This document shows positions 6,496 through 25,561 of a stretch of DNA of 36,934 bases, in pieces (position 1 is the first letter of the stretch; every line of letters begins with the position of its first letter). The notes under the pieces were generated by a model that did no database searches, was not told where the DNA came from, and saw nothing but the letters and a program-made list of their open reading frames with translations. The position numbers and the translations under genes are program-made. The stretch is from Polyangia bacterium (GTDB taxonomy: Bacteria; Myxococcota_A; Polyangia; Fen-1088), in contig DATLVT010000217.1 in NCBI GenBank assembly GCA_035577105.1, positions 1 to 36,934 of the forward strand. The letters run 5' to 3'.

Positions 6496-8589
6496 CTAGT
6501 CGAACTGCGCCAGATCGGTCTCGCCCAGAAGGTACAGCGCACGCAGGAACGTCAGCAGCTCCTCGGGCGCCGTGAAATGACCCATCCAGGCGCGCAGCGT
6601 CCGCTGCCCGTCCAGCATCTCCAGCACCTCGCCTGGTGTCGGCCCCAGCCGAAACGCTTCCGGGGGAATGCGCAGTCGCGCGGTGGCCGAGACGTGACAG
6701 TCGAGGAGGCTGGCGAACCGTCGCTCCAGCAACTCATACGGCAGGTTGAGGACGCCGGCGCCCAGGATCTCGAACGTGTCGAGGCCCAGCGGAAAGCTCT
6801 CCTGGGGGTTGGTGACGCCGCGGTAAAACGCGAACGTTCCCTCCGTCCAGGCGAAGACGTCGATGACCCGATCGCGGACCTGTTGCGACAGCAGGCGAAA
6901 GACGTCCAGCGGTTTCAAGATGCCCAGCCCGACCAGCGTGTCGCCCAGCTTGCCCGCGTACTGGGGCAGCGTCTCCAGCGCTTTTTCCAGCTGGCCCGCG
7001 CTGAGCACGCCCTTGCCGACCAGGTATTCGCCGAAGCGATCGTTGGGCAAATTCGAGTTGACCGACTCGGGGGCACCGCTCACCAGGTAGACCTCCTTGG
7101 CGTGGCCGGCCAGTTCGAAACGGAGCAATCCCGTCTCCTGCGCCACCGCGAGATCGGAGAACACCCGCATGGGCGTGATGATGCTGACGTCGCCCGCGCT
7201 GTCGGGCGGGCGGCCCGGGGCGCCGGAGACGAACCGGCCGACGTCGCTGCGCGTACTGGACGTTCGTCCGCGGCCGCTGGGCGCGCCCGCCGGCAGCGGC
7301 GTCCACCCGGTTCCGCGCACCGAAGAGCGCTCCGATTCATTGACCCACTGATCCAGATCGACGACCGCCAGCGGTTGCGCCAACGCCTGACCGAGCATGG
7401 TGCCGCCGGGCGCCTTCATCATGGCCTCGCCTTTCGCCGGCGGCGAGGAGGCGTTGGGCCGCGGGTGATCGATCTCGATCTGCAGATCGGCGGTCGCTTC
7501 GTCCGACACGCGTCTGGCGGGAAAGCCGACGGGGTTCGGCCCGCGGCCGGCCGCGGCGGCTGGGGCGGGCACCGGCTCGCGACGAGCAGGCTCGGGCGGC
7601 TCGGGCAGCTTGCGCCCTTGCTGGGACAGTCTCGCCGCCGCTTCGGGGCGGCTGTCGAACAGGTCGGTGATGAAATGGCGCAGGTCGGTCGTGCTGACCC
7701 GCTTTCCCGACGTGAAAAGATACTCGGCCAGATCGTCGCGAAACTCGGCCGCCGTCTGGTAGCGCTGCTCGGGATCTTTCTTCAGGGCGCGCCGCACGAT
7801 GCGATCCAGCGCCGGCGGAAGGTCGTTGCAAAAGCGATTCAACCGATCGAGGTGCGCGTCCCGCACCATCAGCAGGACGTCCAGATCGTTTGCGGCGGTG
7901 AACAGCCGGCGCCCCATGAACATCTCGGCCAGCACCACGCCGACGGCGAACAGATCGCTGCGCGCATCCATCGACGTCCCGACGACCTGCTCGGGCGACA
8001 TGTAGCCGTACTTGCCCTTCAGCGTGCCGGCCTGCGTTTTCGATTCGCGCTCCTCGGCGCGGGCGATTCCGAAGTCCCCCAGCTTCACGTCGCCGCCCTT
8101 GGACATGAAGATGTTCGACGGTGAGATGTCCCGATGAACGAGGTTCATCGGACTTCCGTCCATGTCCCTGGCGTTGTGCGCGTAGTCCAGCGCCTCCAGC
8201 ACCTCGACGGCGATGAAGCAGGCCAGCGGCAGAGGCAGGCGCATGCGTTTTTGCGCGCAGGTGCGCAGCAGCGCCAGGGCGTCGAATCCGTCGACGAACT
8301 CCAGGGCGATGAAGTACTTTCCGCCCACCTCGCCGAAGTCCAGGATCTGCACGATCTTCGGGTGCGTCAGCTGCGCGGTCAGCTTGGCCTCGTCGATGAA
8401 CATCGACATGAACGTCTTGTCCGACGCCAGGTGCGGAAGGATCCGCTTGATGACCAGGATCTTCTCGAAGCCGTGCGACGAAACGATCTTCGCGCGGAAG
8501 ACCTCGGCCATGCCTCCCAGGGCTAGCCGGGCCAGCAGGGTATAGCGACCGAATTGCGAGGGTAATATCGCAGGTCCCTCGGTCGCCAT
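6496..8589 (-). CDS. Hanks-type Ser/Thr protein kinase with a C-terminal DUF4388/PatA-N-like domain
   Basis: LGGMAEVFRAK, VIKRI, HRDISPSNIF, DFGIARA and MSPEQ kinase motifs. The C-terminal region (GLLRFELAGHAKEVYLVSG...GEYLVGKGVLSAGQLEKALE...LGDTLVGLGIL) resembles DUF4388 plus a T2SSE-N-like module. Confidence 0.85.
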   Translation of the reverse strand: MATEGPAILPSQFGRYTLLARLALGGMAEVFRAKIVSSHGFEKILVIKRILPHLASDKTFMSMFIDEAKLTAQLTHPKIVQILDFGEVGGKYFIALEFVDGFDALALLRTCAQKRMRLPLPLACFIAVEVLEALDYAHNARDMDGSPMNLVHRDISPSNIFMSKGGDVKLGDFGIARAEERESKTQAGTLKGKYGYMSPEQVVGTSMDARSDLFAVGVVLAEMFMGRRLFTAANDLDVLLMVRDAHLDRLNRFCNDLPPALDRIVRRALKKDPEQRYQTAAEFRDDLAEYLFTSGKRVSTTDLRHFITDLFDSRPEAAARLSQQGRKLPEPPEPARREPVPAPAAAAGRGPNPVGFPARRVSDEATADLQIEIDHPRPNASSPPAKGEAMMKAPGGTMLGQALAQPLAVVDLDQWVNESERSSVRGTGWTPLPAGAPSGRGRTSSTRSDVGRFVSGAPGRPPDSAGDVSIITPMRVFSDLAVAQETGLLRFELAGHAKEVYLVSGAPESVNSNLPNDRFGEYLVGKGVLSAGQLEKALETLPQYAGKLGDTLVGLGILKPLDVFRLLSQQVRDRVIDVFAWTEGTFAFYRGVTNPQESFPLGLDTFEILGAGVLNLPYELLERRFASLLDCHVSATARLRIPPEAFRLGPTPGEVLEMLDGQRTLRAWMGHFTAPEELLTFLRALYLLGETDLAQFD

Positions 8590-8642
8590 GTGTCAAGGAC
8601 TATAGCAGGTGTTGTCGACCTCACGGAGAAAGTGGCGACCGG

Positions 8643-12651: not shown

Positions 12652-13836
12652 TCAGGGCACGAAGATGGGGACGCAGGGGAAGACCGCTTCGATGTCGGTG
12701 ATCGTGCCGGCCATGACCTGGTCGCAATAGGACCCTTTGAGAACGATCGACGTCATGGTGGCGTCGCCATAGTCCCAACCGGCGGTGGCGTCTTTCGGGA
12801 TGACCGTGCCGCTGCTCTTGACCATCACCTTTTCCGCCATCGCGGGCGCCTTCTCCAGCTTGAATTCGCAGGAGGCGATCTTGCGCTGGATGGTCTTCAG
12901 CGTCGCGACGAGCTGATCGCTATTGGTCACCAGATAGTAGGCGGGTAACCCCGTCGCCATTTGCGGCCGGCCACCCGCGTTTGCCATGCTGGTGAGGGTG
13001 GCGTCCGCGCCGGTGTTGGTGGCGATGCCGACCACGAACACCGGGATGCCCTTGCCGGCGCTGTCCATGACGGCTGCGATGGAAGCAACCTCGTCGGCTT
13101 TTGACTGGTCGGGCACGGCGCCGGCGCAGTTGGGCAGACCGTCGGTGGCCAGAAGGATGTACTTGGGATTCGTGTCTGGCAGCGCGGTCAGATAGGCGGC
13201 AGCGCTGCTGACCGCGACAGCCGTGGGCGTGGCGGCGCCGTTCAGCGGTGGGACTGAATTGGTCATGGCCACGCCGATGGCGCCGGCGTTCTTGTCGCCG
13301 ATGGCGACCTTCGGCGCTGCGGCCGCGCCGCAAGCGCCGGTGTCCGGGAAGACCTTCAGGCCCCAGCGAATCGTGCTCTCGGTCTGGGTGACGACCTGAT
13401 TGATCGCCGAGGTGACCTGGGTCCATTTTTGCGACTGGACGCAGGCCGGAGTGGGCGTGGTGCCCGGGCAGGCCTGTCCGTTGGGCTGCTCCAGCATCGA
13501 TCCCGAGCGATCCAGGACCACCAGCAGGTCGGGCGGCGTTGATTCGAGTTTGAAGGTCTGCATTCCACAGGTGGGAACGTCGGTCGAGCCCCCATCGTCG
13601 CCGCCGCCGACGACGCCGCCGGTGCCGCTCGTGTCGGCGTCGACACCGCTGCCACCGGTGCCGATCACACCCCCGCTGCCTGGCAGGTCGCTGCCGCCGC
13701 TGCCGGAGCCAATCGCACCGCCGCCGCCGGTGTCACCGCCCGAGCCGGTGTCGCTGCCTTTGTTACCGCTCCAGCTGCATCCTCCCAGGACGAACACGAT
13801 CACAGAAGCCAGGACCCGTGCGTGCAAACGCTGCAT
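12652..13836 (-). CDS. Secreted von Willebrand factor A (VWA) domain lipoprotein
   Basis: Lipobox VLGGC, a Gly-rich linker, and the MIDAS motif LVVLDRSGSM (DxSxS). Confidence 0.8.
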   Translation of the reverse strand: MQRLHARVLASVIVFVLGGCSWSGNKGSDTGSGGDTGGGGAIGSGSGGSDLPGSGGVIGTGGSGVDADTSGTGGVVGGGDDGGSTDVPTCGMQTFKLESTPPDLLVVLDRSGSMLEQPNGQACPGTTPTPACVQSQKWTQVTSAINQVVTQTESTIRWGLKVFPDTGACGAAAAPKVAIGDKNAGAIGVAMTNSVPPLNGAATPTAVAVSSAAAYLTALPDTNPKYILLATDGLPNCAGAVPDQSKADEVASIAAVMDSAGKGIPVFVVGIATNTGADATLTSMANAGGRPQMATGLPAYYLVTNSDQLVATLKTIQRKIASCEFKLEKAPAMAEKVMVKSSGTVIPKDATAGWDYGDATMTSIVLKGSYCDQVMAGTITDIEAVFPCVPIFVP

Positions 13837-13998: not shown

Positions 13999-14451
13999 CT
14001 AGCGAGGGCCGTCGGGATCGAGCAGGCGGCCGCGCACCGGAGCGGACGCCGCACCGACGGCGCGATCGCGATCGGGCTCGTCGCCCACCTCGATCTCGCA
14101 GTCGCCGAACTGCGCGCCGAACACGTCGCCGGTTCCCGGCGCGACCGCCAGGCCGCGCGCGCGGATCACCGTGTGATCCAGGACGCGGCCCGCGAGCTCG
14201 ATCTCATCGGCCTCCAGCAGTCCGCCCAGCGCTCCGCGCGACCGCAGGACGCCCGCTTTGATCTTGCCGGTCAGGGCGCCGGTCTCGGTCACCTCCACGG
14301 TGGGGCTGACCACGTCGCCCTCCAGTCGGCCTCTCACCAGGACGTGTCCGCTCGAGGCCAGCGTGCCCGAGAGCGCGCTGCCTTCCTCGACGATCGTATC
14401 CTTAGGCGGAGCGGCTGGCCCGGGGCTGACGGCGTTTGGGTCGTCTATCAT
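13999..14451 (-). CDS. Bactofilin (DUF583 polymer-forming cytoskeletal protein), copy 2
   Basis: TIVEEGSALSGTLASSGHVLVRGRLEGDVVSPTVEVTETGALTGKIKAGVL... shows the bactofilin beta-helix periodicity. The only start codon (ATG 14451) overlaps the upstream gene by 50 nt. Confidence 0.8.
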   Translation of the reverse strand: MIDDPNAVSPGPAAPPKDTIVEEGSALSGTLASSGHVLVRGRLEGDVVSPTVEVTETGALTGKIKAGVLRSRGALGGLLEADEIELAGRVLDHTVIRARGLAVAPGTGDVFGAQFGDCEIEVGDEPDRDRAVGAASAPVRGRLLDPDGPR

Positions 14452-15718
14452 CGGCGTCCTTCTCCTTGTCCTTGTCCCGGATGGCGCTGGCGCGGGCGAT
14501 GCGCAGGCGCAGGCGGCTCCCTTTTTCGAAGGCGAACCGCGTATCGCGCTCGTTCTGTTCCACGCTGGCCACCATTGCGCCCTGGCTGGTCACGCGCAGC
14601 GTACGGACGCCGATGATGCCGGGGCTGCGGCGCTGAAAGAAATGGCCGTGCACCGTGACGTCGCCGCCGCCGGTGATCTGGCAGCCGGCCAGAACCCCGG
14701 CCCGACCGATCACCAGCTCGGTGCCGGGCCCCAGGTTGATGACACAGTTCTCGAACAGGCTGTCGATCTCGACGCGCGCGCCGCCGTCGAAGGCCAGCGT
14801 GGCGTCGCGCAAAGTATCGCCACGCCCGAAGTAGCGCCGGTTGGCGCCGCCGCCGCCGATCTCGCCGGCCACGAAACCGCTGAGCAGGAAGGGGATCTCC
14901 GAATCGGTGAGGCGCGCGGCCCCGTCGCCCTCCGGGCTGGGATCAAGAAACGCCGCCTGCAGATCGGCGTCCAGGGCGGCGCCGGTGCCGATGAGACCCG
15001 CCACCTTGGCCCCGGTCAGGCAAGCCGCGCGCAGCGTGGCGCCGGTCAGCCGGGCGCGCCGCAGATCGGCCAGGCTGAAGTCGGTCTCTGACAGATCGGC
15101 GCGGCTGAGATCGGCCTTGACCAGCGATGCACCGCCCAGCTTGGCCCCGCGCGCCCGCACCTGGGTCAGCGAGGCGTCGTGAAACAATGCGCGGGTGAAG
15201 TCGCCTTGCACCATCGATGCGCCGCGCAGGCTGGCGTTGTTGAACTCGGCGCTGGCCGCCTTCACCCGATCCAGAGATGCGCCGGACAGGTCGGCGTGCA
15301 TGAGAGCGGCGTCGCGCAGATCGGCGCCCGTCAGGTTGGCACCCGCCAGCTGCGAGCGGCGAAGACGTGCGCCGGCCAGGTTCGCCCCGCTGAGGTTGGC
15401 CCCCTCCAGGTTGGCGCGGGTGAGGTCGGCGCCGATCAGCACCGCGCCCTCCAGGTTGGCCTTTTCCAGATCAGCGCTCTCCAGCCGGGCCTCACGCAGG
15501 TTGGCGCCGCTGAGGTTGGCTTCGCGCAGGCTGGCGTTCTTCAGGCTGGCGCCGCTGAGATCGGCGCCCCGCAGGTCGGCGCCGTCCAGATCGGCGCGCC
15601 CCAGCTCCGCGCCGGCCAGCGCGGCATTGCTGAGGTTGATGCCGCGCAGATCGGCGCGGTCCAGCTTTTCGCCACGCGCGAATCGCCGAAGGACGTCGGC
15701 GGGCGAAAGTTCTGCCAT
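14402..15718 (-). CDS. Pentapeptide-repeat protein (438 aa) with a distinct C-terminal beta-helix-like domain, copy 2
   Basis: About 250 aa of A(D/N)LxG-type pentapeptide repeats (ADLRGINLSNAALAGAELGRADLDGADLRGADL...). The ATG at 15718 overlaps the upstream bactofilin stop (TGATG). Collinear paralog of 16253-17569 with identical length. Confidence 0.85.
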   Translation of the reverse strand: MAELSPADVLRRFARGEKLDRADLRGINLSNAALAGAELGRADLDGADLRGADLSGASLKNASLREANLSGANLREARLESADLEKANLEGAVLIGADLTRANLEGANLSGANLAGARLRRSQLAGANLTGADLRDAALMHADLSGASLDRVKAASAEFNNASLRGASMVQGDFTRALFHDASLTQVRARGAKLGGASLVKADLSRADLSETDFSLADLRRARLTGATLRAACLTGAKVAGLIGTGAALDADLQAAFLDPSPEGDGAARLTDSEIPFLLSGFVAGEIGGGGANRRYFGRGDTLRDATLAFDGGARVEIDSLFENCVINLGPGTELVIGRAGVLAGCQITGGGDVTVHGHFFQRRSPGIIGVRTLRVTSQGAMVASVEQNERDTRFAFEKGSRLRLRIARASAIRDKDKEKDADDRRPKRRQPRASRSA

Positions 15719-16260
15719 CAGGTCGGCGTGCTGGAGTTGGCCGGCGCGGGACGCTCGGCCCCGGCGACCGGAGCGGCGGCGGCGACGAGAGCGGCGCTGT
15801 TCTCCTTGATAGCCGTTCCGGTGTGCCCGGCGCCCGAGGCCAGCGCTTCGCGCAGGGCCGCCTCCTTGGCCGGCACCTCGCCGATTTGCAGCTCGCAGTC
15901 GAAGAGCTCGACGGCCAGCGCCCCGGTCCCAGTTCCGGTCCCAGTTCCGGTCTTGGGCGGAACAACCTCCAACGTCTTGGCGATGATCACCGTCTCGTCG
16001 CGGACGCGACCGCACAGGATCACGTCGTCGGCCTCGAAGGTCCCGGTCAAGTCACCCTTCGAGCGCAGCTCGGTGACCTTGACCTGACCGTCGACGGTGC
16101 CGCTCTCGGCGACGTCCAGCGACGGCCCGGTGATCTCGCCCTCGACCTGGCCGCGCACCAACACGGCGCAGTTCGCCGACAGCGTCCCTTTGAAGGCGGT
16201 GCCCTCTTCGATGACGGTCTTCTTTTCTGGCGCCGGGCGCGCGTTGCCTCTGTCAGCCAT
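15718..16260 (-). CDS. Bactofilin (DUF583), copy 1, with a (Thr-Gly)5 insert and an Ala-rich tail
   Basis: TVIEEGTAFKGTLSANCAVLVRGQVEGEITGPSLDVAESGTVDGQVKVTEL... is a bactofilin repeat pattern. The start overlaps the upstream pentapeptide gene by 8 nt (ATGGCTGA). Confidence 0.85.
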   Translation of the reverse strand: MADRGNARPAPEKKTVIEEGTAFKGTLSANCAVLVRGQVEGEITGPSLDVAESGTVDGQVKVTELRSKGDLTGTFEADDVILCGRVRDETVIIAKTLEVVPPKTGTGTGTGTGALAVELFDCELQIGEVPAKEAALREALASGAGHTGTAIKENSAALVAAAAPVAGAERPAPANSSTPT

Positions 16261-17569
16261 GGGTTAACCGCCCTTCCTGTCTTTCTTTTGCTTTTGCTTT
16301 TGCCTTGGCTTCGGCTTCCGCTTCACTGCTGCTGGCCTTCATGACCTTGAGACGCAGGCGGCAGCCCCGTTCGAAGGCGAACCGGGTGGGCGTGGCCGCC
16401 TGTTGCACCGACGCGTCCAGCGCGCCGCGCCCGGTGACCACCAGGGCGCGTGGTCCGACGATCCCGGGGCGTTCGCGCTCGAAAAATTGTCCGTGCACGG
16501 TGATGTCGCCGGCGCCCGAGATCTGACAGTCGGCCAGCACGCCCGACTGACCGACCACGACGGCCGCCCCCTCGCCCAGGACGATCGAGCAGTTTTCAAA
16601 GACGCTGTCGATCTCCACCTTGGCGCCGGCGGTGAACTCCAGCGTGGCGTTGCGCAGGATGTCTCCGCGCCCGAAATAACGTCGGTCGCCGGCCGGCCTG
16701 TCGCGGGTGCCGGCTCCTGGCGCGCGGGCGCCGCCTAGCAGGGCCGGGATCTCGCCGTCGGTGACGCGGGCGGAGCCGTTTCCTTCCGGGCTGGCGTCGA
16801 CCCAGGTGACCTGCAGATCGCCGACGTTGGCGCTGCCGCCCATCACGCCGGCAACCTTGGCGCCGGTCAGCGTGGCGCCTTGAAAGACCGTGCCGGCCAG
16901 GTGCGCCTGCCGAAGATCGGCGTTGGCCAGGTCAGCCTTGGAGAGATCGGTGCGCGTCAGGTCGGCCTTGCGCAACACCGCGCCGCCCATCTTGGCGCCG
17001 GTGGCCCGTGCCTCGACCAGCTGCGCGTCCAGGAATTGCGCGCGCGTGAAATCACCGCCGGTCAGCGTGGCGGCGCGCAGGTTGGCCCCGGTGAAGTCCG
17101 CGGCGGTCGCCTTGACGTTGCCGAGGTGCGCCTCCGCCAGCTCGGCGTGCACCAGGATCGCTTCCCGCAGGTCGGCGCCGGTCAGGTTCGCCGTCCCCAG
17201 CTGGGCGAATCCCAGGCGCGCGCCGGTCAGCGTGGCCCCGGTCAGGTTGGCCCCCTCCAGGTTGGCGCGCAGCAGGTTGGCGCCGGCCAGGTTGGCGCGC
17301 TCCAGGTTCGCCTCTTCAAGGTCGGCGCATTCAAGATTGCACTCGCGCAGGTCGGCGCCGATCAGGTGGGCCTCGCGCAGGTTGGCGTTCTTCAGCACGG
17401 CGCCGCGCAGGTTGGCGCCCTCCAGGTTGGCCCCTTCCAGATCAGCCCGGGCCAGCGCCGCCGACGGCAGGGGCGCCTTCGCCAGATCGATCCCGCGCAG
17501 GTCGGCGCGCTCCAGTTTCTCGGCGCGCCGGAACCTCTCCAAAACCTGATCACGGGTCAGCTCGGCCAT
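16253..17569 (-). CDS. Pentapeptide-repeat protein (438 aa) with a distinct C-terminal beta-helix-like domain, copy 1
   Basis: ADLRGIDLAKAPL...ADLEGANLEGANLRGAVLKNANLREAHL... repeats. GGAGA lies 7 nt upstream of the ATG at 17569. C-terminal (EA)3(KA)4 tail. Confidence 0.85.
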   Translation of the reverse strand: MAELTRDQVLERFRRAEKLERADLRGIDLAKAPLPSAALARADLEGANLEGANLRGAVLKNANLREAHLIGADLRECNLECADLEEANLERANLAGANLLRANLEGANLTGATLTGARLGFAQLGTANLTGADLREAILVHAELAEAHLGNVKATAADFTGANLRAATLTGGDFTRAQFLDAQLVEARATGAKMGGAVLRKADLTRTDLSKADLANADLRQAHLAGTVFQGATLTGAKVAGVMGGSANVGDLQVTWVDASPEGNGSARVTDGEIPALLGGARAPGAGTRDRPAGDRRYFGRGDILRNATLEFTAGAKVEIDSVFENCSIVLGEGAAVVVGQSGVLADCQISGAGDITVHGQFFERERPGIVGPRALVVTGRGALDASVQQAATPTRFAFERGCRLRLKVMKASSSEAEAEAKAKAKAKERQEGRLTHG

Positions 17570-17584
17570 CGGTGTTTCTCCATC

Positions 17585-19000
17585 CTAGGAAGCGCGCGCC
17601 AAACCGCCCGCTTGTTGCAGGTATTGCTCCAGCTCGTCGATCCGTCGTGCGAAAGAATAGGTCTGCAGCCGCAAGGCGAAATCGACGTCGCCCAGGCGGG
17701 CCATGGCCCCTTTGATCTTGAGAAAGGTCAGCTCGCGATCGCGGCGATGGCGGCGCTTGGCGGTCAGATTGTCCGCGGACCAGCCCTGCGCGGCGCGCGT
17801 GTATTCCTGCTGCTGGATCTTCAGCGTGGCCACCAGCGGCTCCAGCACGCGTCTGGCGTCGGTGATCTCGGGCGGCCCGCCGCCCCCGGCCGTCCGGCGC
17901 AGCTCCTGCGCCTTGGCCACCAGCGCGGCGGCGGTGGGTCCGGGCAGATCGGCGACCACGGCCACCTCTTCGGCGGTGGCGCGCAGCAAGGAGTCCAGGC
18001 GACCGAGGCCGACGGCAAACAGGCGCTGCACCATGAGCGGCTCCAGGCCTGGCACCTGACCCAGCACCGACTGAACCAGCAGCGGCTCGCGCCGATCGCG
18101 GTCGCCTTCCAGCTCGAACGCGCCGGGCAGGGCGCTGACCAGGTCGGCATACGTGGCGGTCAGCTGTCGCCCCAGCTCTTCGGTGATGAATTCGTTGACC
18201 ACGGCGTGATCCAGCGGAATCAAGAAGGCGCTGATGGCTTGATTCAACGCCTCCATCTCGATCTGCTCGGCCATGCGCCGCAGGGAGCTGAGCGCGCCCC
18301 GCGCCGCCACGGTCCAGGCGACGGCCGCGCCACCCCATTGCAGCTCCAGCATCAAGCTGCGCACGGGGCGCACGTGCTCGGCGGCCAGATCGGACAGCGT
18401 GGCGCGCGCAGCCGCCCGATCGGCGTCGCTGAGGACGGCCGCCGCAGGCGTGGTGGTTGTGGGGCCGGGGGGGCCGCCGGAATTTTCCAGCGACGGGAGC
18501 GGCACTGTGAGCAAAGTCTTCATCGCGGCCTGTCCGATTGACTGTGCGGATTCCGTCGCCGTCACCGCCGTGGGATCCGAGTCTTCGGTGGGAAAGACTT
18601 TGCGGAGCGCTTCGTCGATCGATGTGGCTACGTCGGGAGGCGGCGCTGGTTTCGCCGATGACGCGGAAGTTTCGAGGGCGGCGGTGGTCGGCGCCGTGGT
18701 ATCGACGGCCTTCTCGCGGCGGCCGGGCGCAGCGCCCCTGCGGGTGGCGTTGTTGCCGGCGGACGGTTGAACCGGCGGCGCGGCCCGGCCCGGCGCCCCG
18801 GGACCTTCCTTGGGGTCCTTCGATCGCTTCACCGTCGAGGGGGTGGTCGGTCTTGGGGGCGGTAACCGGGTGCCGGACGGCGGCGCCGCTGGCGGGGCCG
18901 TCGGGACAGCGGGCGCGGATTCTGGCGCGGGGGCTGGCGCTGGGTCGCCGGCGGGGGCCCCGGCGTCGTGTTTGGGGAAAAGTCGCGACAGGATGCTCAT
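17585..19000 (-). CDS. Pro/Ala-rich protein with a helical C-terminal half containing helix-hairpin-helix-like motifs; first gene of the bactofilin operon
   Basis: 471-aa ORF with GC-rich third codon positions. About 170 aa of low-complexity P/A-rich sequence, then LGQVPGLEPLMVQRLFAVGLGRLDSLLRATAEEVAVVADLPGPTAAALVAKA (HhH-like pattern). Ends 15 nt before the next gene. Confidence 0.6.
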   Translation of the reverse strand: MSILSRLFPKHDAGAPAGDPAPAPAPESAPAVPTAPPAAPPSGTRLPPPRPTTPSTVKRSKDPKEGPGAPGRAAPPVQPSAGNNATRRGAAPGRREKAVDTTAPTTAALETSASSAKPAPPPDVATSIDEALRKVFPTEDSDPTAVTATESAQSIGQAAMKTLLTVPLPSLENSGGPPGPTTTTPAAAVLSDADRAAARATLSDLAAEHVRPVRSLMLELQWGGAAVAWTVAARGALSSLRRMAEQIEMEALNQAISAFLIPLDHAVVNEFITEELGRQLTATYADLVSALPGAFELEGDRDRREPLLVQSVLGQVPGLEPLMVQRLFAVGLGRLDSLLRATAEEVAVVADLPGPTAAALVAKAQELRRTAGGGGPPEITDARRVLEPLVATLKIQQQEYTRAAQGWSADNLTAKRRHRRDRELTFLKIKGAMARLGDVDFALRLQTYSFARRIDELEQYLQQAGGLARAS

Positions 19001-19083
19001 GAGATCTTTGCCCGGCAGGACGAAGGGAAGCGCCCGGAGGTTAGCAACAGCGACGGTGACGATGGCAAGAGTTTTCTGTGTGA

Positions 19084-19105
19084 CAGTCGGGAGTTGTCCC
19101 GACTG
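19084..19105. promoter_or_regulatory. Perfect 9-bp stem / 4-nt loop hairpin in the leader/promoter region of the bactofilin operon
   Basis: CAGTCGGGA-gttg-TCCCGACTG. It is followed by an 11-bp palindrome TGACAgTGTCA at 19108-19118. Confidence 0.35.
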
Positions 19106-19450
19106 AATGACAGTGTCAGATCAGCCAATACAATTTTGTTTTGAGTGTTCCATTGTGGAATGTGGAATTCACTCAAAGTGGTGGCAGTCCCGACACGCCG
19201 TCGAAAAAGGCATGCAACGATTGTCTAAAATGCTCAACGCTGGCCAGCGGGGTTGGTTTCGGCGAAATCAGCAGCGATATCGGGAAATCCATGGCGCCGG
19301 CAAACCAAACTTCCCCGCGAACTATGCATTCCTGCACTGATTTTCGATCGATTTTGTATGCGGGCGGACAACACACCGCGCGGTGATTTTTCTGCGACAA
19401 CAAACGCGTCGTGACGAAAACGTACAGCCAAGATACGATCGTACTGGCCT

Positions 19451-20152
19451 ATGAAATCCCTGATGCTGGCCTCATGGGGTAAGGCAGGGCCGCCGCAGCC
19501 GTCGCGGGCGCTGGTCGGTTCCTTGATGGTTATCCTCGGTTGCTCCGGGGCCGAACCATTCAGCGGTCACCTTGCTTCAGACGGCGCCCCCCTCAGCCAA
19601 CCGGACGGTGCGGGGGGCACGATGGACGGCACGGGCGGCGCCAGCGCCGAAGGCAGCGGCGGCGCACCGGAGAGCGGCAGCGGCGGGAGCAGCGGCAGTG
19701 GTGGGGAATCCGGCAGCGGGGGCGGAGGGGGAGGCGGAAGCGGAGGGACGACCGGCGCCGGTGGTTCCGGCGGTTCCGACGGTTCCACCTTGGGCAGCGG
19801 CGGCGGCAACGGTGTCGACGGAGCCGCGGACATGTCCGCCGACGTTCCTGGCAGCGGCGGCGCCGGCGGTAAAGGCGGCGCCGCGGGCACCGGCGGGGCG
19901 TCGGGCAGCGGTGGCGCCGGCGGCGGGCTGTCCTGCGCGGGCGTCGCCGAATGGTCGGCGGCCGCGACGGCCAGCTACCTACCGGGCCTCAACGGCCAGC
20001 CGGGCACCACGATCAAGCACGGCAACCCCTCACACCTTTTTCGCTGCAAGCCCAGTCCGGCCGGCTTCTGGTGCCAGCAGCCCGCTTACGAACCGCTGGC
20101 GCCGTCCGGGTACTGGCGCGACGCCTGGGACGATCTGGGCGCTTGTAACTGA
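19451..20152 (+). CDS. Gly/Ser-rich secreted lipoprotein with a Cys-containing C-terminal module (CBM5/12-like carbohydrate-binding domain?)
   Basis: Lipobox VILGC and a long GSGG low-complexity region. C-terminal CAGVAEWSAAATASYLPG...FRCKPSPAGFWCQQPAYEP...YWRDAWDDLGAC has an aromatic/Cys pattern. The domain call is tentative. Confidence 0.6.
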   Translation: MKSLMLASWGKAGPPQPSRALVGSLMVILGCSGAEPFSGHLASDGAPLSQPDGAGGTMDGTGGASAEGSGGAPESGSGGSSGSGGESGSGGGGGGGSGGTTGAGGSGGSDGSTLGSGGGNGVDGAADMSADVPGSGGAGGKGGAAGTGGASGSGGAGGGLSCAGVAEWSAAATASYLPGLNGQPGTTIKHGNPSHLFRCKPSPAGFWCQQPAYEPLAPSGYWRDAWDDLGACN

Positions 20153-20970: not shown

Positions 20971-22653
20971 CTACGAAGCCGGCGGTGGGGGCGGGCCTGG
21001 CGTACTGGGTGGTGACGGCGTGGCGGTGGCTGGCAGACCTCGACGGGCCATCACCTGTTCAAAGCTGGCGCGCAGACCGGGGACGTTGGCGGCCAGCAGA
21101 CCGAACTCGCGCTTGGGGATGCTGAGCACGGTCATCGCGTCCAGGCACCGAACCGTGGCGTTGCGGGGCGCGCTGCCGAGGAGGGCCATCTCGCCGAAGC
21201 ATTCGCCGGGGCCCAGCGTGGTCAGCACCTGCTCGCCGCCGCGCTCGCCTTTGCTGTTGTCGCCCGGGACGGCGAGGTGTCTGCGCACCACCTCGGCCTT
21301 GCCGGACAGGAGGATGTAGACGCGATCGCCCAGCTCGCCTTCGTTGAACACCGTCTGACCCGGTTCGAAATGTTCGTGCGTGGCGCCGCCGCTGGCGCCC
21401 AGGCGCAGCTGGATCAGCTCCGTCGGCAGGATCAGGTCCAGCGTCCACGAGCTGGCCACCTTGAGCCGCCGGCCCCAGCCGGGGAGCTTTGACAGATAGA
21501 TCGTCCGCCACAAGAACCAGGCCAGAAAGCCGGAGATCCCGATGCCGAAGATCTCGGCCACGGCGTTGCGTCGCCCCAGCGAGCCCATCTTGCCCAGCCC
21601 CTTGAAGTCAAAGGCGCGCAGCCCGCCGCCGTTGATGGTGGCGACGATGTTGTCGGCGACCAGGTGGGCCTGGCGGGTGGCGTGCTGGGCCGTGGGCGGG
21701 CAGGGCGTGCCGTCGGCGGTGGGCACCGACGCGCAGTCGCCCACCGCCCAGACGTCTGGCCGGCCTTGCACCCGCAGGTTGGCGTCGACGATGAGGCGGC
21801 CATTCTTCGTCTTCGGCAACGGCAGCGTGTCGACCAGCGGGTGCGGCGACGACGGGATGGTCGAGACCAGCGTGCGCGTCGGGATGGCGCTGCCATCCGA
21901 CAGGATGGCTGCTTCGGCGGTGGCCGCCTTCAGGCGCTGGTTCAGCACCAGCTCGACGCCGCGCCGGCGCAAGATCTTGGCGGCGAAGGCGCGCAGCTTG
22001 GGGGCTACCTCGGGGAGGATTTCGCCTTGTCCGTGCACCAGCACCACACGAATGTCCGCGGGGTTGATGCGGCGATAGAGGCGGGCGATGCCGCGCACGA
22101 AATCGTTCAGCTCGGCCACCACCTCGACGCCGGAGAAACCACCGCCTGCCACGACGAAGGTCAGGAGCTGCTTGCGCAGGACCGGGTCGTCGTCCTCGAT
22201 GTCGGCCTCCTCCAGGGCGCGGATGGCGCGGGCGCGCAGCTCCAGGGCGTCGGACAGGTTCTTGAACGGAAGGGCGTGCTCGGGCAATCCTGGCAGACCC
22301 CGAAAATCGGTGACGGTGCCAGGCGCCAGCACCAGGTGATCGTAATGTTCGACGTGGGCGTGCGGGCGGAAGCCGGGGGCGGCGCTGATGGTCTGGTTGG
22401 CGATGTCGATCGACTCGACGTCCCGGACCACCACGTGCGTGCGGCGCAGCAGCCGGCGCAGCGGGCTGACCACATCGGTGAGCCCGATGGTTCCGGAGAT
22501 CACCTCGGGCAGCATCGGCTGAAACACAAAGTAGTTGTCGCGGCTGAAAAGAAGGATCTCCCAGTCGTCGCGCCGGCCCAGCTTGCGCTCCAGCGCCTGC
22601 GCGGCGTAGACGCCGGCGAATCCGCCTCCCACCACCACGATGCGCTTTCTCAT
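20971..22653 (-). CDS. Type II NADH dehydrogenase (NDH-2, FAD/NAD(P) oxidoreductase) fused to a C-terminal cyclic-nucleotide-binding domain
   Basis: Two Rossmann motifs (IVVVGGGFAGVY and VVAGGGFSGVE). After a membrane-proximal segment, a CNB domain follows: FNEGELGDRVYILLSGKAEV...GECFGEMALLGSAPRNATVRCLD. Confidence 0.85.
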   Translation of the reverse strand: MRKRIVVVGGGFAGVYAAQALERKLGRRDDWEILLFSRDNYFVFQPMLPEVISGTIGLTDVVSPLRRLLRRTHVVVRDVESIDIANQTISAAPGFRPHAHVEHYDHLVLAPGTVTDFRGLPGLPEHALPFKNLSDALELRARAIRALEEADIEDDDPVLRKQLLTFVVAGGGFSGVEVVAELNDFVRGIARLYRRINPADIRVVLVHGQGEILPEVAPKLRAFAAKILRRRGVELVLNQRLKAATAEAAILSDGSAIPTRTLVSTIPSSPHPLVDTLPLPKTKNGRLIVDANLRVQGRPDVWAVGDCASVPTADGTPCPPTAQHATRQAHLVADNIVATINGGGLRAFDFKGLGKMGSLGRRNAVAEIFGIGISGFLAWFLWRTIYLSKLPGWGRRLKVASSWTLDLILPTELIQLRLGASGGATHEHFEPGQTVFNEGELGDRVYILLSGKAEVVRRHLAVPGDNSKGERGGEQVLTTLGPGECFGEMALLGSAPRNATVRCLDAMTVLSIPKREFGLLAANVPGLRASFEQVMARRGLPATATPSPPSTPGPPPPPAS

Positions 22654-22743: not shown

Positions 22744-24831
22744 TCATTTCGATGCGGCCACCCAGGTGCCATCCCAGTCGGCCGGTGGCGGCTCCTGTTT
22801 CCAGTGCCGGCATCGATCGGCCAGGACGGCGCCCGCCGCATCATCGGTCAGCGGCGCCAGAAGGTCGAGCGCCTCCTGGAATTCGCGGCGGTGGGCGGCA
22901 GCCAGCGCATCTTCATATGGCTTCAGCCTGGCCAGGCGCCGGGTGGCCAGGGGATCGCCGGCGACGCCCAGCAGTTCGAAGATGAAGATCGATTGGTTGC
23001 GTCCCTTGACGGCCACCCGATCCAGGCGGCGAAACAGAAACTGCTCACCGACGCGGTCGCGGATCTCCTCGCTGACCAGGATGGTGGTGCCGTAGACCTT
23101 GTTGAGGCCTTCCAGGCGGGCGGCCAGGTTCACGCCGTCGCCCATCGCGGTGTAACTGAGCCGGTCGGGGGCGCCGAAATGCCCGACCATCACCTGGGCG
23201 GCGTGCAGGCCAAAGCGGGTGCGCCACGGCGCGAGACCGGCCTTCTGCCACCACGGCGATCGCCCCAGCTCGTCGGTGGCGGCGTCGCAGGTCAGGGCGG
23301 CCCGGCAGGCGGCCACCGCGTGGTCCGCGACGGGATCGGGCGCGTTCCAGATCACCATCAGCGCGTCGCCGATGTACTTGTCGACGGTGCCGCCCAGCCC
23401 CTCGACGGCGGCGGTGGCCGCCTGCAGATACCGGCCGAGAGCGTCGGCCAGCAGGGGCGGGGGCAGCTTTTCGGCGTGGCTGGTGAAATCGGCGATGTCG
23501 GTGAACATCAGCGACACATCCAGAAGGTCGGCGCCCAGCACGGGGTCGCGTCCGCTTTCGTAAAGGCGCCTGACCAGGCCGACCGGGACGTATTTCACCA
23601 TCGCCCGCAAGGCGGTCTTGGCGCGTTCCACGCTGCCCAGCGCGCCCCGCACCTCGCCGAAGGGCGACTGCACGGGCGCGGCGTCGAAGGTGAAGCGCCG
23701 CATTCCCTCGGTGGCCGTCACCAGGGCGCGCATGCCCCGACCGACGGTGCGCGCGCCGCCCAGCCCGACGGCCGCGATGACCAGCACGACCAGCACCATC
23801 AGGCCCAGCAGGCGATCGCGCGCGTGGGCGATGGCGCCGACATAGGCGCTGGCGGGGACGACGATCCCGACCAGCCACTGCTGGGCCCGCCCCTGGGCGA
23901 CCGGGACCAGGGTGACGAAGTAGGGTTCACCGTCGACGTCGAGGCGCGCGCCGCCCACCGCTCCGCCGCGCGCCAGAGCCAGCGCGGCCTGGACCGGCGG
24001 CGGGATCGTGGCGGGGACCACGCGCAGATCGCCGTCGGGATCGGGGCGGCCGTCCTCGTCGACGGCGGTGTACAGATCGGCCTTTTGCAGGCGGGTGACC
24101 AGCCGTCCCCCGGCGTCGCAGATGAAGAGGCGATGGGGATCGTCGCCGCTCTTCATCGACGCAAAGCGGTCCAGCGTGTCGCTGGTGATCCCGGCGCGCA
24201 AGACGCCCACGAATTTGCCCTGGGGATCAAAGATGGCCTTCTGAACCGTCATCACCTTGCGGCGCAAGCCGGCGGTCAGCGCGGCATCGCCCTCGCGATA
24301 GGAGAGGTCGCTCCACAGACTGCGCCCCCGCCACTCCTGATGAGCGGCGGCGCGAAAGGTGTCGTGACGGGTCGGATCGGCCGCGCTGTCGGCGGCCACG
24401 TCGGTCAGCAGGCGCCCGCCGATCTGGCCGTCATGCTCGCGAAAGACGGCGATCTGTCGGCGGCCCTGGGCCCACAAGACCATGGTCCCGTCGTCCTCGT
24501 AACGTTTGAAGAGCCCGCTGGTCAGGGTCAGGTCGGTCAGACCGCGCAGGGCAATCAACTCGGCGGTCAGATAGCGACGGACGGCGAGCGGATCTCCGAC
24601 GACCACGGCCCCCACGGTCAGCGCCTGCTCGAAATCAGCGACCGCCCTTTCGGCGGTGCCCAGATCGGATTCCAGCGCGGCGGCGATGCGGGTGGCGGTG
24701 TCGTGGCGCGCGCTCTCGCCGACCTTGATCACCGCCTGGTTGGCGGTGCGCACGGCCACCAGCAGCACGGCGCCCGCCAGCAGGGCCAGCGCCACCACGA
24801 CGAACGCGAAGAAGCGCGGCAGCGTCAGCAC
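22744..24831 (-). CDS. Membrane sensor class III adenylate/guanylate cyclase (TM - periplasmic Cache-like region - TM - HAMP - cyclase)
   Basis: Two TM segments flank about 300 aa, followed by a HAMP-like linker. Cyclase motifs are VSLMFTDIADFTSHAE, VDKYIGDALMVIWNAP and GDGVNLAARLEG. GTG start lies 16 nt after the anti-sigma stop. Confidence 0.85.
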   Translation of the reverse strand: MLTLPRFFAFVVVALALLAGAVLLVAVRTANQAVIKVGESARHDTATRIAAALESDLGTAERAVADFEQALTVGAVVVGDPLAVRRYLTAELIALRGLTDLTLTSGLFKRYEDDGTMVLWAQGRRQIAVFREHDGQIGGRLLTDVAADSAADPTRHDTFRAAAHQEWRGRSLWSDLSYREGDAALTAGLRRKVMTVQKAIFDPQGKFVGVLRAGITSDTLDRFASMKSGDDPHRLFICDAGGRLVTRLQKADLYTAVDEDGRPDPDGDLRVVPATIPPPVQAALALARGGAVGGARLDVDGEPYFVTLVPVAQGRAQQWLVGIVVPASAYVGAIAHARDRLLGLMVLVVLVIAAVGLGGARTVGRGMRALVTATEGMRRFTFDAAPVQSPFGEVRGALGSVERAKTALRAMVKYVPVGLVRRLYESGRDPVLGADLLDVSLMFTDIADFTSHAEKLPPPLLADALGRYLQAATAAVEGLGGTVDKYIGDALMVIWNAPDPVADHAVAACRAALTCDAATDELGRSPWWQKAGLAPWRTRFGLHAAQVMVGHFGAPDRLSYTAMGDGVNLAARLEGLNKVYGTTILVSEEIRDRVGEQFLFRRLDRVAVKGRNQSIFIFELLGVAGDPLATRRLARLKPYEDALAAAHRREFQEALDLLAPLTDDAAGAVLADRCRHWKQEPPPADWDGTWVAASK

Positions 24832-24847
24832 GACGCGCCTGACTTCA

Positions 24848-25561
24848 TCAGCGCTCGAGCAGGCTGGGCAGCAGCGCGGCGCCGGCCGCCGCCGCCAGGA
24901 TCATCCCGCCCACGTGGGCCAGCACCACGTGATCGGTGCCGGCGAACGGGCAGATGAAATGCAACGTCAGCCCGCCCAGCGCGCCGCCCGCCGCGCCCAG
25001 GCCCATGCCCAGCCAGCGGGCCCCCACCGGCATCAGCCGCCGCAGGACCAGAAAACTGACCAGCAGCAAAACGCCGGAGACGCGAAAGACGTAGCTGATG
25101 CAGTGCAGGCACGAATCAAACAGCGTCCACCCGCGATCGGCGGGGACCATGCTGACGCCCGGGACCTGGACGGTGAAGAACAGCCCGAAGAAGAACACCA
25201 CCAGGATGGCCAGAAAGCTGATGCGCGAGGCGCGGCTGGCGCCGGGTAGAACGTCCCCGCGCCGCGGGATCAGCGCCGCCGCCAGCGACAGCACGAAGGC
25301 GGCGCCCCACAGCACCGCGCCCACGACCACCCAGATGCGAGGAAGCACCGCCAGGTCGGGACGCATGGGCCGCAGCAGCATGGTCAGCGTCGGCCAGATC
25401 AGGCCCGCCACCAGGACCACGGTGAAGGCGCCGAACCGGGAACGCATGCGCACGGGCCGCATGCCCTCGACGGCCTTGATCAGCATGGGCGCCGGTGGGG
25501 GGGGCGGGGTTCCGTCGAACCCCGAGCCCACGCCGCGGCCATTTGCGTCGTGCACGCTCAT
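24848..25561 (-). CDS. NrsF/DUF1109-family membrane anti-sigma factor
   Basis: Six-TM-like protein with Cys/His-containing segments (DSCLHCISYV and LHFICPFAGTDHVVLAHVGG). The ATG overlaps the sigma gene stop (ATGA at 25558-25561). Confidence 0.7.
   Translation of the reverse strand: MSVHDANGRGVGSGFDGTPPPPPAPMLIKAVEGMRPVRMRSRFGAFTVVLVAGLIWPTLTMLLRPMRPDLAVLPRIWVVVGAVLWGAAFVLSLAAALIPRRGDVLPGASRASRISFLAILVVFFFGLFFTVQVPGVSMVPADRGWTLFDSCLHCISYVFRVSGVLLLVSFLVLRRLMPVGARWLGMGLGAAGGALGGLTLHFICPFAGTDHVVLAHVGGMILAAAAGAALLPSLLER

Follow-up and report, generated by a model that had tools for sequence, protein, structure and literature searches.

The window analysed here is a 36,934-nucleotide stretch of contig DATLVT010000217.1 from the Polyangia bacterium assembly GCA_035577105.1 (Myxococcota), and our subject is a group of five tightly packed minus-strand genes within it (positions 13999-19450 including the upstream region; Table 1). 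The first gene encodes a protein that we call G1, and it is followed by genes for a pentapeptide-repeat protein (PRP1), a divergent bactofilin (Bac1) and a second copy of each (PRP2 and Bac2). What is conserved is a cassette of three genes, G1 + PRP + bactofilin, found in 80 species-level Polyangia genomes. The original prediction, made from the letters of the sequence, had placed five minus-strand open reading frames (ORFs) here, with a 15-nt gap between G1 and PRP1 and overlaps of 8 nt (PRP1/Bac1), 1 nt (Bac1/PRP2) and 50 nt (PRP2/Bac2), and all of these ORFs and junctions are present as claimed. The GC content of the window is approximately 69%, and that of third codon positions (GC3) is 0.80-0.87 in all five ORFs, in keeping with genuine genes at that GC level. 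Bac2 can start only at an ATG 50 nt inside PRP2, as no other in-frame start codon lies ahead of the conserved bactofilin core; this ATG is preceded by a Shine-Dalgarno-like AAGGAG within PRP2, and the 50-nt overlap is retained in the related loci L004 and L005. Upstream of G1, positions 19001-19450 hold no high-GC3 ORF, and the GC content falls to 0.648 across 19001-20000. Since a sigma-70 consensus scan gave no promoter on the minus strand of the operon or its surroundings, and a terminator scan likewise found none, we infer from the spacing only that the five genes are co-transcribed as an operon. Rfam and tRNA scans of the window found no RNA element.

Table 1. Features of the five-gene group and its upstream region (aa, amino acids; CTD, C-terminal domain; HhH, helix-hairpin-helix; AF2, AlphaFold2; pLDDT, predicted local distance difference test).
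Feature	Positions	Strand	Description
G1, cassette gene 1	17585-19000	-	471 aa; N-terminal peptide, disordered Pro-rich tether and helical C-terminal domain
G1 N-terminal peptide MSILSRLFPK	18971-19000	-	family motif M-[SG]-I-F-S-R-L-F-[KQ]-[RK]; putative membrane targeting
G1 Pro/Ala/Thr-rich disordered linker, aa 11-191	18428-18970	-	low-complexity sequence of variable length
G1 conserved helical domain, aa 192-471	17588-18427	-	AF2: four-helix bundle, (HhH)2-like module, long helical hairpin
G1 (HhH)2-like module, aa 313-365, LGQVPGLEP...LPGPTAAALV	17906-18064	-	profile, Foldseek, HHH_5
PRP1	16253-17569	-	438 aa; PF00805 E=4.6e-58; AF2 pLDDT 90.9
PRP1 pentapeptide beta-helix, aa 15-255	16805-17527	-	~48 repeats; AF2 model, DNA periodicity, hydropathy
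PRP1 CTD, aa 296-410, begins RRYFGRGD	16340-16684	-	invariant columns, strand pattern, Gly periodicity
Bac1, divergent bactofilin	15718-16260	-	180 aa; PF04519 48.2 bits, aa 15-99 (15964-16218)
Bac1 post-core motif ELFDCELQIGEVP	15871-15909	-	family consensus FGxCELxVGDxP
PRP2, PRP1 paralogue	14402-15718	-	438 aa from the ATG in TGATG; PF00805 E=6.8e-59
PRP2 domains	helix 14954-15676; CTD 14498-14842	-	
Bac2, Bac1 paralogue	13999-14451	-	150 aa; PF04519 38.9 bits; Pfam core 14134-14397
Bac2 post-core motif QFGDCEIEVGDEP	14074-14112	-	
Upstream intergenic region	19001-19450	-	putative promoter and 5' leader, assigned by position only

To find related loci (numbered with L below), GTDB was scanned at one genome per species with patterns derived from the PRP C-terminal domain (CTD), which gave 186 confirmed stretches, of which the best 80 loci were kept; start sites in these loci were chosen heuristically, guided by homology. 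In all 79 loci where the contig continues, a same-strand bactofilin gene comes after the PRP gene, and a G1 homologue precedes the PRP gene in 76 of the 77 loci with enough upstream sequence. The genes are also closely spaced, with a median of 2 nt between the PRP stop and the bactofilin start (a 4-nt overlap in 29 of 79 loci) and a median of 19 nt between the G1 stop and the PRP start. When the ORFs of all loci were clustered all against all, G1, PRP and bactofilin were the only common families, the next flank gene being present in 7 loci. Recurrent flank genes encode kinases, an AAA ATPase, a sigma-70 factor, a histidine kinase, TPR/PEGA, DUF4388 and DAGK proteins, and the flanks of the related loci have no consistent functional theme. 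The 79/79 adjacency of PRP and bactofilin genes and the presence of G1 in 76/77 loci, between unrelated flanks, support the idea that these genes are co-functional. Lack of synteny outside this genome had been named in the original prediction as an outcome that would speak against it, and synteny was found in the related Polyangia loci. The duplicated PRP-bactofilin module that it described is indeed present in the window, but the unit that is conserved consists of three genes and includes G1.

Nearly all of the kept loci are labelled Polyangia, Polyangiaceae, Kofleriaceae, Haliangiales, Labilithrix, or generic Myxococcales or deltaproteobacteria. Three loci from bins labelled Blastocatellia or Clostridia (L057, L068 and L069) also contain the full cassette, with G1 starting MSFLSRFF or MSFLSRLF, much like the usual peptide; given their GC content of 64-65%, these contigs are most likely mis-binned or mislabelled Myxococcota. 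The homologues listed in the protein searches are annotated only as "hypothetical" or "pentapeptide repeat-containing protein", and the 47 G1 homologues are all "hypothetical".

Further evidence that the cassette proteins belong together comes from natural gene fusions. A HMMER search with the CTD alone against 1.84 billion cluster representatives returned 151 proteins at E<=1e-3 (numbered with P below), which makes the CTD a rare domain; in full-length hits it is nearly always at the extreme C-terminus of proteins of approximately 410-430 aa. In P0097 (594 aa), P0120 (740 aa), P0126 (605 aa) and P0145 (597 aa), however, PRP, CTD and bactofilin form a single chain, and P0109 (838 aa) combines a G1-like region with PRP and CTD. 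P0145 is identical on two independently assembled contigs from different samples, which rules out an assembly artefact for this fusion, and a G1-like gene lies immediately upstream. A bactofilin gene comes next after P0109 and overlaps it by 4 nt. P0126 begins with MSLISRLFPNPP, i.e., with a G1-type MSLISRLF peptide and a Pro-rich linker that runs straight on into PRP-CTD-bactofilin; upstream of P0126, no G1 gene is present. The order of the parts in the fusions, (peptide-linker)-PRP-CTD-bactofilin, would place G1 at the N-terminus of the PRP and the CTD beside the N-terminus of the bactofilin. The P0126 gene (L086:4404-7752) adjoins genes for a RecQ-family helicase and RadC, a DNA-metabolism neighbourhood seen at this locus only.

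P0015, P0018 and P0028 look like stand-alone CTD proteins, which we rejected as a separate architecture. In L001-L003 (ENA ERZ250395xx long contigs), the PRP gene is fragmented and many of the neighbouring genes are very short, suggesting that these are frameshift-rich long-read assemblies and that the three stand-alone proteins are gene-calling artefacts.

The fusions, together with the invariant gene order and the start/stop coupling, make it very likely that the cassette proteins form a physical complex, and the conserved coupling and the natural fusions likewise bear out the earlier proposal of a stoichiometric PRP-bactofilin partnership. The opposite view, that the genes are mere neighbours or part of a mobile or defence island without a common structure, could appeal to flanks that vary between genomes, as they do around mobile islands. 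However, the gene order is kept across Polyangia families with one copy per locus, PADLOC gave no hits for the five proteins or the downstream von Willebrand factor A (VWA) domain protein, no integrase or transposase occurs among the annotated neighbour or recurrent flank genes, and independent fusions join the proteins, leaving this view with almost no credibility.

The doubling of the PRP-bactofilin pair is restricted to the window and its three closest relatives, L004-L006, which are 73-95% identical to the window over the G1 helical domain, the PRP1 CTD and Bac1; the other genomes have a single module. As predicted, PRP1 and PRP2 are collinear paralogues of equal length, with 255 of 438 residues identical, and Bac1 and Bac2 share 67 identical residues. 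Neighbour-joining trees of the PRPs and of the bactofilins each contain two parallel paralogue clades (window plus L004-L006), with the PRP2 orthologues of L004-L006 as a separate clade, and together with L023 and L061 these make up one small clade of 10 leaves. The parallel clades indicate that the two-gene module was duplicated in tandem within this lineage, and on these trees the duplication is recent and clade-specific. The VWA-domain gene (12652-13836, minus strand) comes 162 nt after Bac2 in the same orientation; it was rejected as a sixth cassette member, being retained only in the closest relatives L004 and L005.

Both PRPs are pentapeptide-repeat proteins by their matches to PF00805 (Table 1). 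The repeats are visible as a 15-nt tandem periodicity in the DNA and as peaks of the hydropathy autocorrelation at multiples of 5, and the AF2 model of PRP1 has one strand per 5 residues, with pLDDT >94 over aa 15-240. From the N-terminus, the model consists of a short helix, an uninterrupted beta-helix (aa 15-255), a linker (disordered at aa 284-293), the CTD and a charged C-terminal helix. Near the C-terminus, a 6-nt repeat (16285-16311) encodes a (Lys-Ala)n tail of PRP1 that is potentially variable in length. The top Foldseek matches of the model are HetL, Np275/276 and MfpA, and the full list consists mostly of PRPs and long right-handed beta-helices, e.g., Ag43 and PL6 lyases.

The C-terminal half of the PRPs (from approximately aa 256) has no Pfam match, yet it contains 18 invariant positions, including RRYFGRGD and two Cys residues. 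The CTD within it is predicted to be all-beta with rungs of approximately 20 residues, the Gly autocorrelation has a peak at lag 20, and the two invariant Cys are at equivalent positions of consecutive rungs; as modelled, the CTD is thus a family-specific beta-solenoid domain. Comparison with Pfam and with PDB sequences gave nothing significant, the best match being the left-handed beta-helix YrdA (E=1.5). We considered whether the CTD is a hidden bactofilin domain and rejected this, given an hhalign probability of 0.7% against the cassette bactofilins and rung periods of approximately 20 versus 17 residues.

The original prediction had, as a speculation, brought in PRPs of the Qnr/MfpA type, and Qnr/MfpA-like PRPs would modulate gyrase or another DNA enzyme as DNA mimics, the bactofilin serving only for localisation. 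The PRP fold does match MfpA, QnrB1 and AlbG structurally, and over the family as a whole the net charge of the PRP domain is mildly negative (median -4.1, minimum -19.3). However, neither PRP is a member of these families, as the NCBIfam scores are far below the cut-offs (Qnr, 66.1 and 86.6 bits versus 240; MfpA, 60.8 and 64.5 versus 360), and by structure they are nearest to HetL, Np275/276 and designed solenoids rather than to Qnr. In addition, the approximately 48 uninterrupted repeats are followed by an extra domain that is absent in Qnr/MfpA, PRP2 is nearly neutral (-0.3), and no topoisomerase or gyrase genes are linked in the window or the flanks. A DNA-mimic role is therefore very improbable. 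Both PRPs exceed the cut-off of 125 for NF052603 (Alr5209 family), with totals of 135.7 and 206, but these totals are summed from 3-5 partial matches of a 113-position model on a 438-aa protein with an extra domain, and as a match driven by the repeats they give no evidence of equivalence.

Bac1 and Bac2 both pass the PF04519 cut-off of 27.9 bits (Table 1), and the hydropathy of the core has a period of approximately 17 residues, which fits bactofilin windings. The cassette bactofilins are nevertheless highly divergent (pairwise E of 0.57 against BacA, 2n3d) and acidic, with isoelectric points of 4.6-4.8 (4.75 for Bac1), and many of them have a basic KRRR patch in the C-terminal tail. A variable loop precedes a Cys-containing last rung: in Bac1, this rung is probably made up of the ELFDCELQIGEVP motif, which follows a (Thr-Gly)n insertion. 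A perfect tandem repeat in the DNA (12 nt x 2.5; 15923-15952) codes for this insertion, whose length is potentially variable. Of the shared motif proposed for the two window proteins, DCE-[IL]-x-[IV]-G-[DE]-x-P is found in both, but the preceding Phe is offset by one position (LFDCE in Bac1, FGDCE in Bac2); the consensus across the family is F-G-x-C-E-L-x-V-G-D-x-P. Canonical bactofilins carry a membrane-targeting sequence (MTS) at the N-terminus, with the consensus MFSKKKK (MFSKQAKS in Caulobacter crescentus BacA, MFSRKTE in the short form of Proteus mirabilis CcmA; PMC12448750). No such peptide is present on the cassette bactofilins themselves: the N-termini of Bac1 (MADRGNARPAPEKK), Bac2 and the family (32 of 80 inspected) are polar, e.g., MSETKKTLIEEGT.

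Bactofilins polymerise via their end rungs (PMC10945521), and a beta-solenoid partner might act there. As a cap or regulator, the CTD would stack end-on on the terminal rung of the bactofilin and block one polymerisation interface, giving either short finite rods (PRP-CTD:Bac-Bac:CTD-PRP) or filaments of limited length. Besides the solenoid nature of the CTD, this is suggested by a weak resemblance between its second rung (F-E-N-C-x-I-x-L-G-E-G) and the last rung of the bactofilin (F-G-x-C-E-L-x-V-G-D), the sole region aligned by hhalign. However, that alignment is not significant (E=0.085, at the 0.7% probability given above), the rung periods differ, and 1:1 coupling and covalent fusion would be unusual for a substoichiometric cap, though compatible with finite dimers. 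We consider a cap distinctly improbable, and decoration of the filament by the PRP rather than capping slightly more likely than not.

G1 has no match in Pfam or NCBIfam at E<=0.01. Its homologues are 426-747 aa long, and the linker varies so much in length that it cannot be aligned. The helical domain (approximately 280 aa) is predicted by AF2 with a mean pLDDT of 91.2 as all-helical, falling to 54-63 where it enters the linker. Foldseek found no global relative of the model (best E of 0.31), and its local matches are a CheA-P1-like four-helix bundle and the HhH-containing proteins RadA, UvrC (C-terminal half) and DisA. The HhH region superposes on RadA chains with a root mean square deviation of 1.8-2.0 Å over 50-52 columns, and a G1 family profile run against the PDB matches the C-terminal half of UvrC (2nrt, E=0.026), including the RDRREP lead-in. 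The Pfam family HHH_5 (PF14520) is reached at E<1 by 17 of 31 relatives (best 9.4e-5), and P0109 scores 31.4 bits, above the cut-off of 27, whereas G1 of the window scores 14.8 bits. The earlier description of "HhH-like" motifs thus receives weak to moderate support, from the local RadA and UvrC matches, with the window protein itself below the cut-off.

The original prediction had offered a filament-anchored role connected with DNA or the nucleoid as speculation, and such a module invites comparison with chromosome organisation, in which bactofilins have a precedent in Myxococcota (PMC5703909; bioRxiv 10.1101/2020.06.17.156356). In a nucleoid scaffold analogous to BacNOP-PadC-ParB of Myxococcus xanthus, the (HhH)2 module of G1 would bind DNA and link it to the bactofilin/PRP scaffold; the UvrC profile match, the RadA superposition, the P0109 score and the KRRR patch on many bactofilin tails all fit this. 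Against it, the hairpin glycines are degenerate, G1 of the window is well below the HHH_5 cut-off and has no ParB-like domain in Pfam, and the recurrent flank genes include no ParA, ParB, SMC or other chromosome genes. Two PRP-bactofilin fusions, moreover, have no adjacent G1, so that the HhH domain is not essential to the core. We regard a nucleoid scaffold as quite unlikely, and contact of the G1 module with DNA, taken on its own, as a possible but unlikely property.

At the N-terminus, the G1 family carries the motif M-[SG]-I-F-S-R-L-F-[KQ]-[RK], which occurs as a strict pattern in 46 of 69 loci and resembles the bactofilin MTS (MFSKKKK/MFSRKTE; PMC12448750), making it a putative membrane-targeting peptide. 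Zinc-ribbon N-termini of G1 were seen in L029, L038, L042, L043, L050, L054, L058, L059, L062, L063 and L078, with L043 having both the zinc ribbon and the peptide. The form MGIFSRLF may also resemble the N-terminus of PspA, although neither 25 aa queried against the PDB nor a text search for "MGIFSR" returned anything.

We propose, as the best explanation of the data as a whole, that the cassette encodes a cytoplasmic three-component cytoskeletal module conserved in Polyangia, and give this proposal an even chance of being right. The bactofilin would polymerise but would have lost the N-terminal membrane-targeting peptide of canonical bactofilins. The PRP would be a rigid beta-helical rod of approximately 48 repeats, which via its CTD would partner each bactofilin subunit 1:1, producing a rod-decorated filament; from the general dimensions of PRP helices, 12 coils at approximately 4.8 Å, the rod is approximately 6 nm long. 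The G1 peptide, at the tip of a long disordered linker, would tether the assembly to the membrane, and in P0126 a targeting-like peptide would be at the tip of the fused PRP-bactofilin chain. The (HhH)2-like module of G1 may add contact with nucleic acid. Where the pair is duplicated, the product would probably be a heteropolymer in which both bactofilin paralogues occur, paired with their cognate PRPs. These parts are not equally secure: whereas a complex is very likely, we hold membrane tethering by the G1 peptide to be plausible but somewhat short of probable. More tentative still is a composite picture, in which the system would be a split and elaborated bactofilin whose peptide, tether, (HhH)2 module, PRP rod and solenoid adaptor are distributed over two partners, bound 1:1 on the polymer and fused in some lineages.

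Several observations weigh against this proposal or parts of it. G1 was not detected in L048, the sole exception among the 77 testable loci, and is absent beside two of the fusion genes, P0126 among them. Three of the five fusions are each known from one contig, so that errors of assembly or frameshifts could have produced them, and the homologues, i.e., the best hits listed in three protein searches and the 80 kept loci, all come from metagenome-assembled genomes or metagenomes. For the PRP-bactofilin interface, hhalign detects no homology between CTD and bactofilin, and the rung lengths differ (approximately 20 versus 17). As for the membrane tether, the hydrophobic moment of the G1 peptide (0.5-0.8) is not unusual compared to shuffled sequences, and in a Polyangiaceae subgroup a zinc ribbon (CPxCG...FCxxCG) replaces or joins the peptide. 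Finally, the hairpins of the G1 HhH module are degenerate (PGLEP and PGPTA, not GIG) and the window protein remains below the Pfam cut-off.

Elsewhere in the window, a minus-strand gene at 20971-22653 encodes an NDH-2-type pyridine-nucleotide-disulfide oxidoreductase fused to a C-terminal cyclic-nucleotide-binding domain, and lies directly downstream of a gene encoding dCache and adenylate/guanylate cyclase domains (22744-24900, minus strand); the two may be a respiratory enzyme pair regulated by cyclic nucleotide monophosphates. A Ser/Thr protein kinase with a DUF4388/PatA_N domain is encoded at 6496-8592 (minus strand). Proteins of both kinds, with DUF4388 or a Ser/Thr kinase domain, are found again beside some of the related cassettes (L049:5452-7101 and L014:7202-9397).

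In the literature searched in full text, no paper links bactofilins with PRPs, in line with the original prediction, whose author knew of no described pentapeptide-repeat partner. One paper contains both terms, but it concerns a PilQ-associated PRP and has a bactofilin paper only among its references; a search for studies of bactofilin gene neighbourhoods added nothing. To our knowledge, only a few classes of bactofilin partners are known, i.e., peptidoglycan enzymes, M23 peptidases, PadC/ParABS and SpmX. PRPs are very numerous, and beyond the gyrase-protecting Qnr/MfpA proteins and a few cyanobacterial cases we know of few cellular roles for them. The PRP-bactofilin pair would provide one PRP family with a concrete, testable function and bactofilins with a new class of partner, while the RRYFGRGD C-terminal solenoid domain and the G1 family define two new protein families. 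The cassette also suggests that the membrane-targeting peptide of a bactofilin can come from a partner protein. If the composite picture is true, this would be the first cytoskeletal role for PRPs, with the rod as a spacer or arm that keeps DNA or other cargo at a fixed distance from a membrane-tethered filament. The components are small and soluble-looking, and thus amenable to testing without culturing the source organisms.

How does the cassette compare with known systems? Of the beta-helical proteins, Qnr, MfpA and AlbG share the right-handed quadrilateral beta-helix of pentapeptide repeats, but the helix of the cassette PRP is longer and is followed by a C-terminal solenoid domain, and neither gyrase genes nor mfpB-like genes are linked to it. 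HetL and Np275/Np276 are protein-interaction scaffolds, not enzymes. They give the best matches to the repeat region (3du1, E=2.3e-14; 2j8k, TM-score of 0.80 normalised to the target), but have neither a CTD nor bactofilin linkage, and the PRPs score 131-133 bits for HetL in NCBIfam, versus a cut-off of 260. For G1, the (HhH)2 domains of the UvrC C-terminal half, the RadA N-terminal domain and DisA share the local fold and the lead-in R-x-RRE ... VPG-h-x-P; unlike those proteins, G1 has no nuclease, recombinase or cyclase domain, its hairpin glycines are degenerate, and it is a helical protein without a global structural relative.

Among bactofilin systems, a close parallel is BacNOP-PadC of M. 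xanthus, in which bactofilins and an operon-encoded adaptor position ParB-parS and ParA (PMC5703909). Both are from Myxococcota, with several bactofilin paralogues and the gene for a non-bactofilin adaptor in one operon, the scaffold recruits other factors, and a link to nucleic acid is possible. They differ in that neither G1 nor the PRPs matched a ParB-like or ParA-related family of Pfam or NCBIfam, and par genes are not recurrent in the vicinity; the place of the adaptor is taken here by a pentapeptide-repeat rod that ends in a novel CTD, with stoichiometric coupling and fusions as additional features. The bactofilin-M23 peptidase pairs (BacA-LmdC in Hyphomonas and Rhodospirillum, CcmA-Csd in Helicobacter) likewise have one specific neighbour partner that is co-conserved across species, LmdC having been identified by its co-conserved bactofilin neighbourhood in 226 species (PMC10945521). 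However, the partner here is cytoplasmic, with no peptidase or transmembrane match, no peptidoglycan genes are linked, and the cassette is found in Polyangia-type genomes only. With the canonical MTS bactofilins, the system shares the PF04519 core and a short hydrophobic-Ser-basic N-terminal peptide, but the peptide is on G1, or at the N-terminus of the P0126 fusion, rather than on the bactofilin, which in turn differs by its loop insertion and the Cys in its last rung. Bactofilin scaffolds whose partner is encoded in the same operon are known from PadC and LmdC; what is new here is the class of partner, the two protein families and the relocation of the putative targeting peptide.

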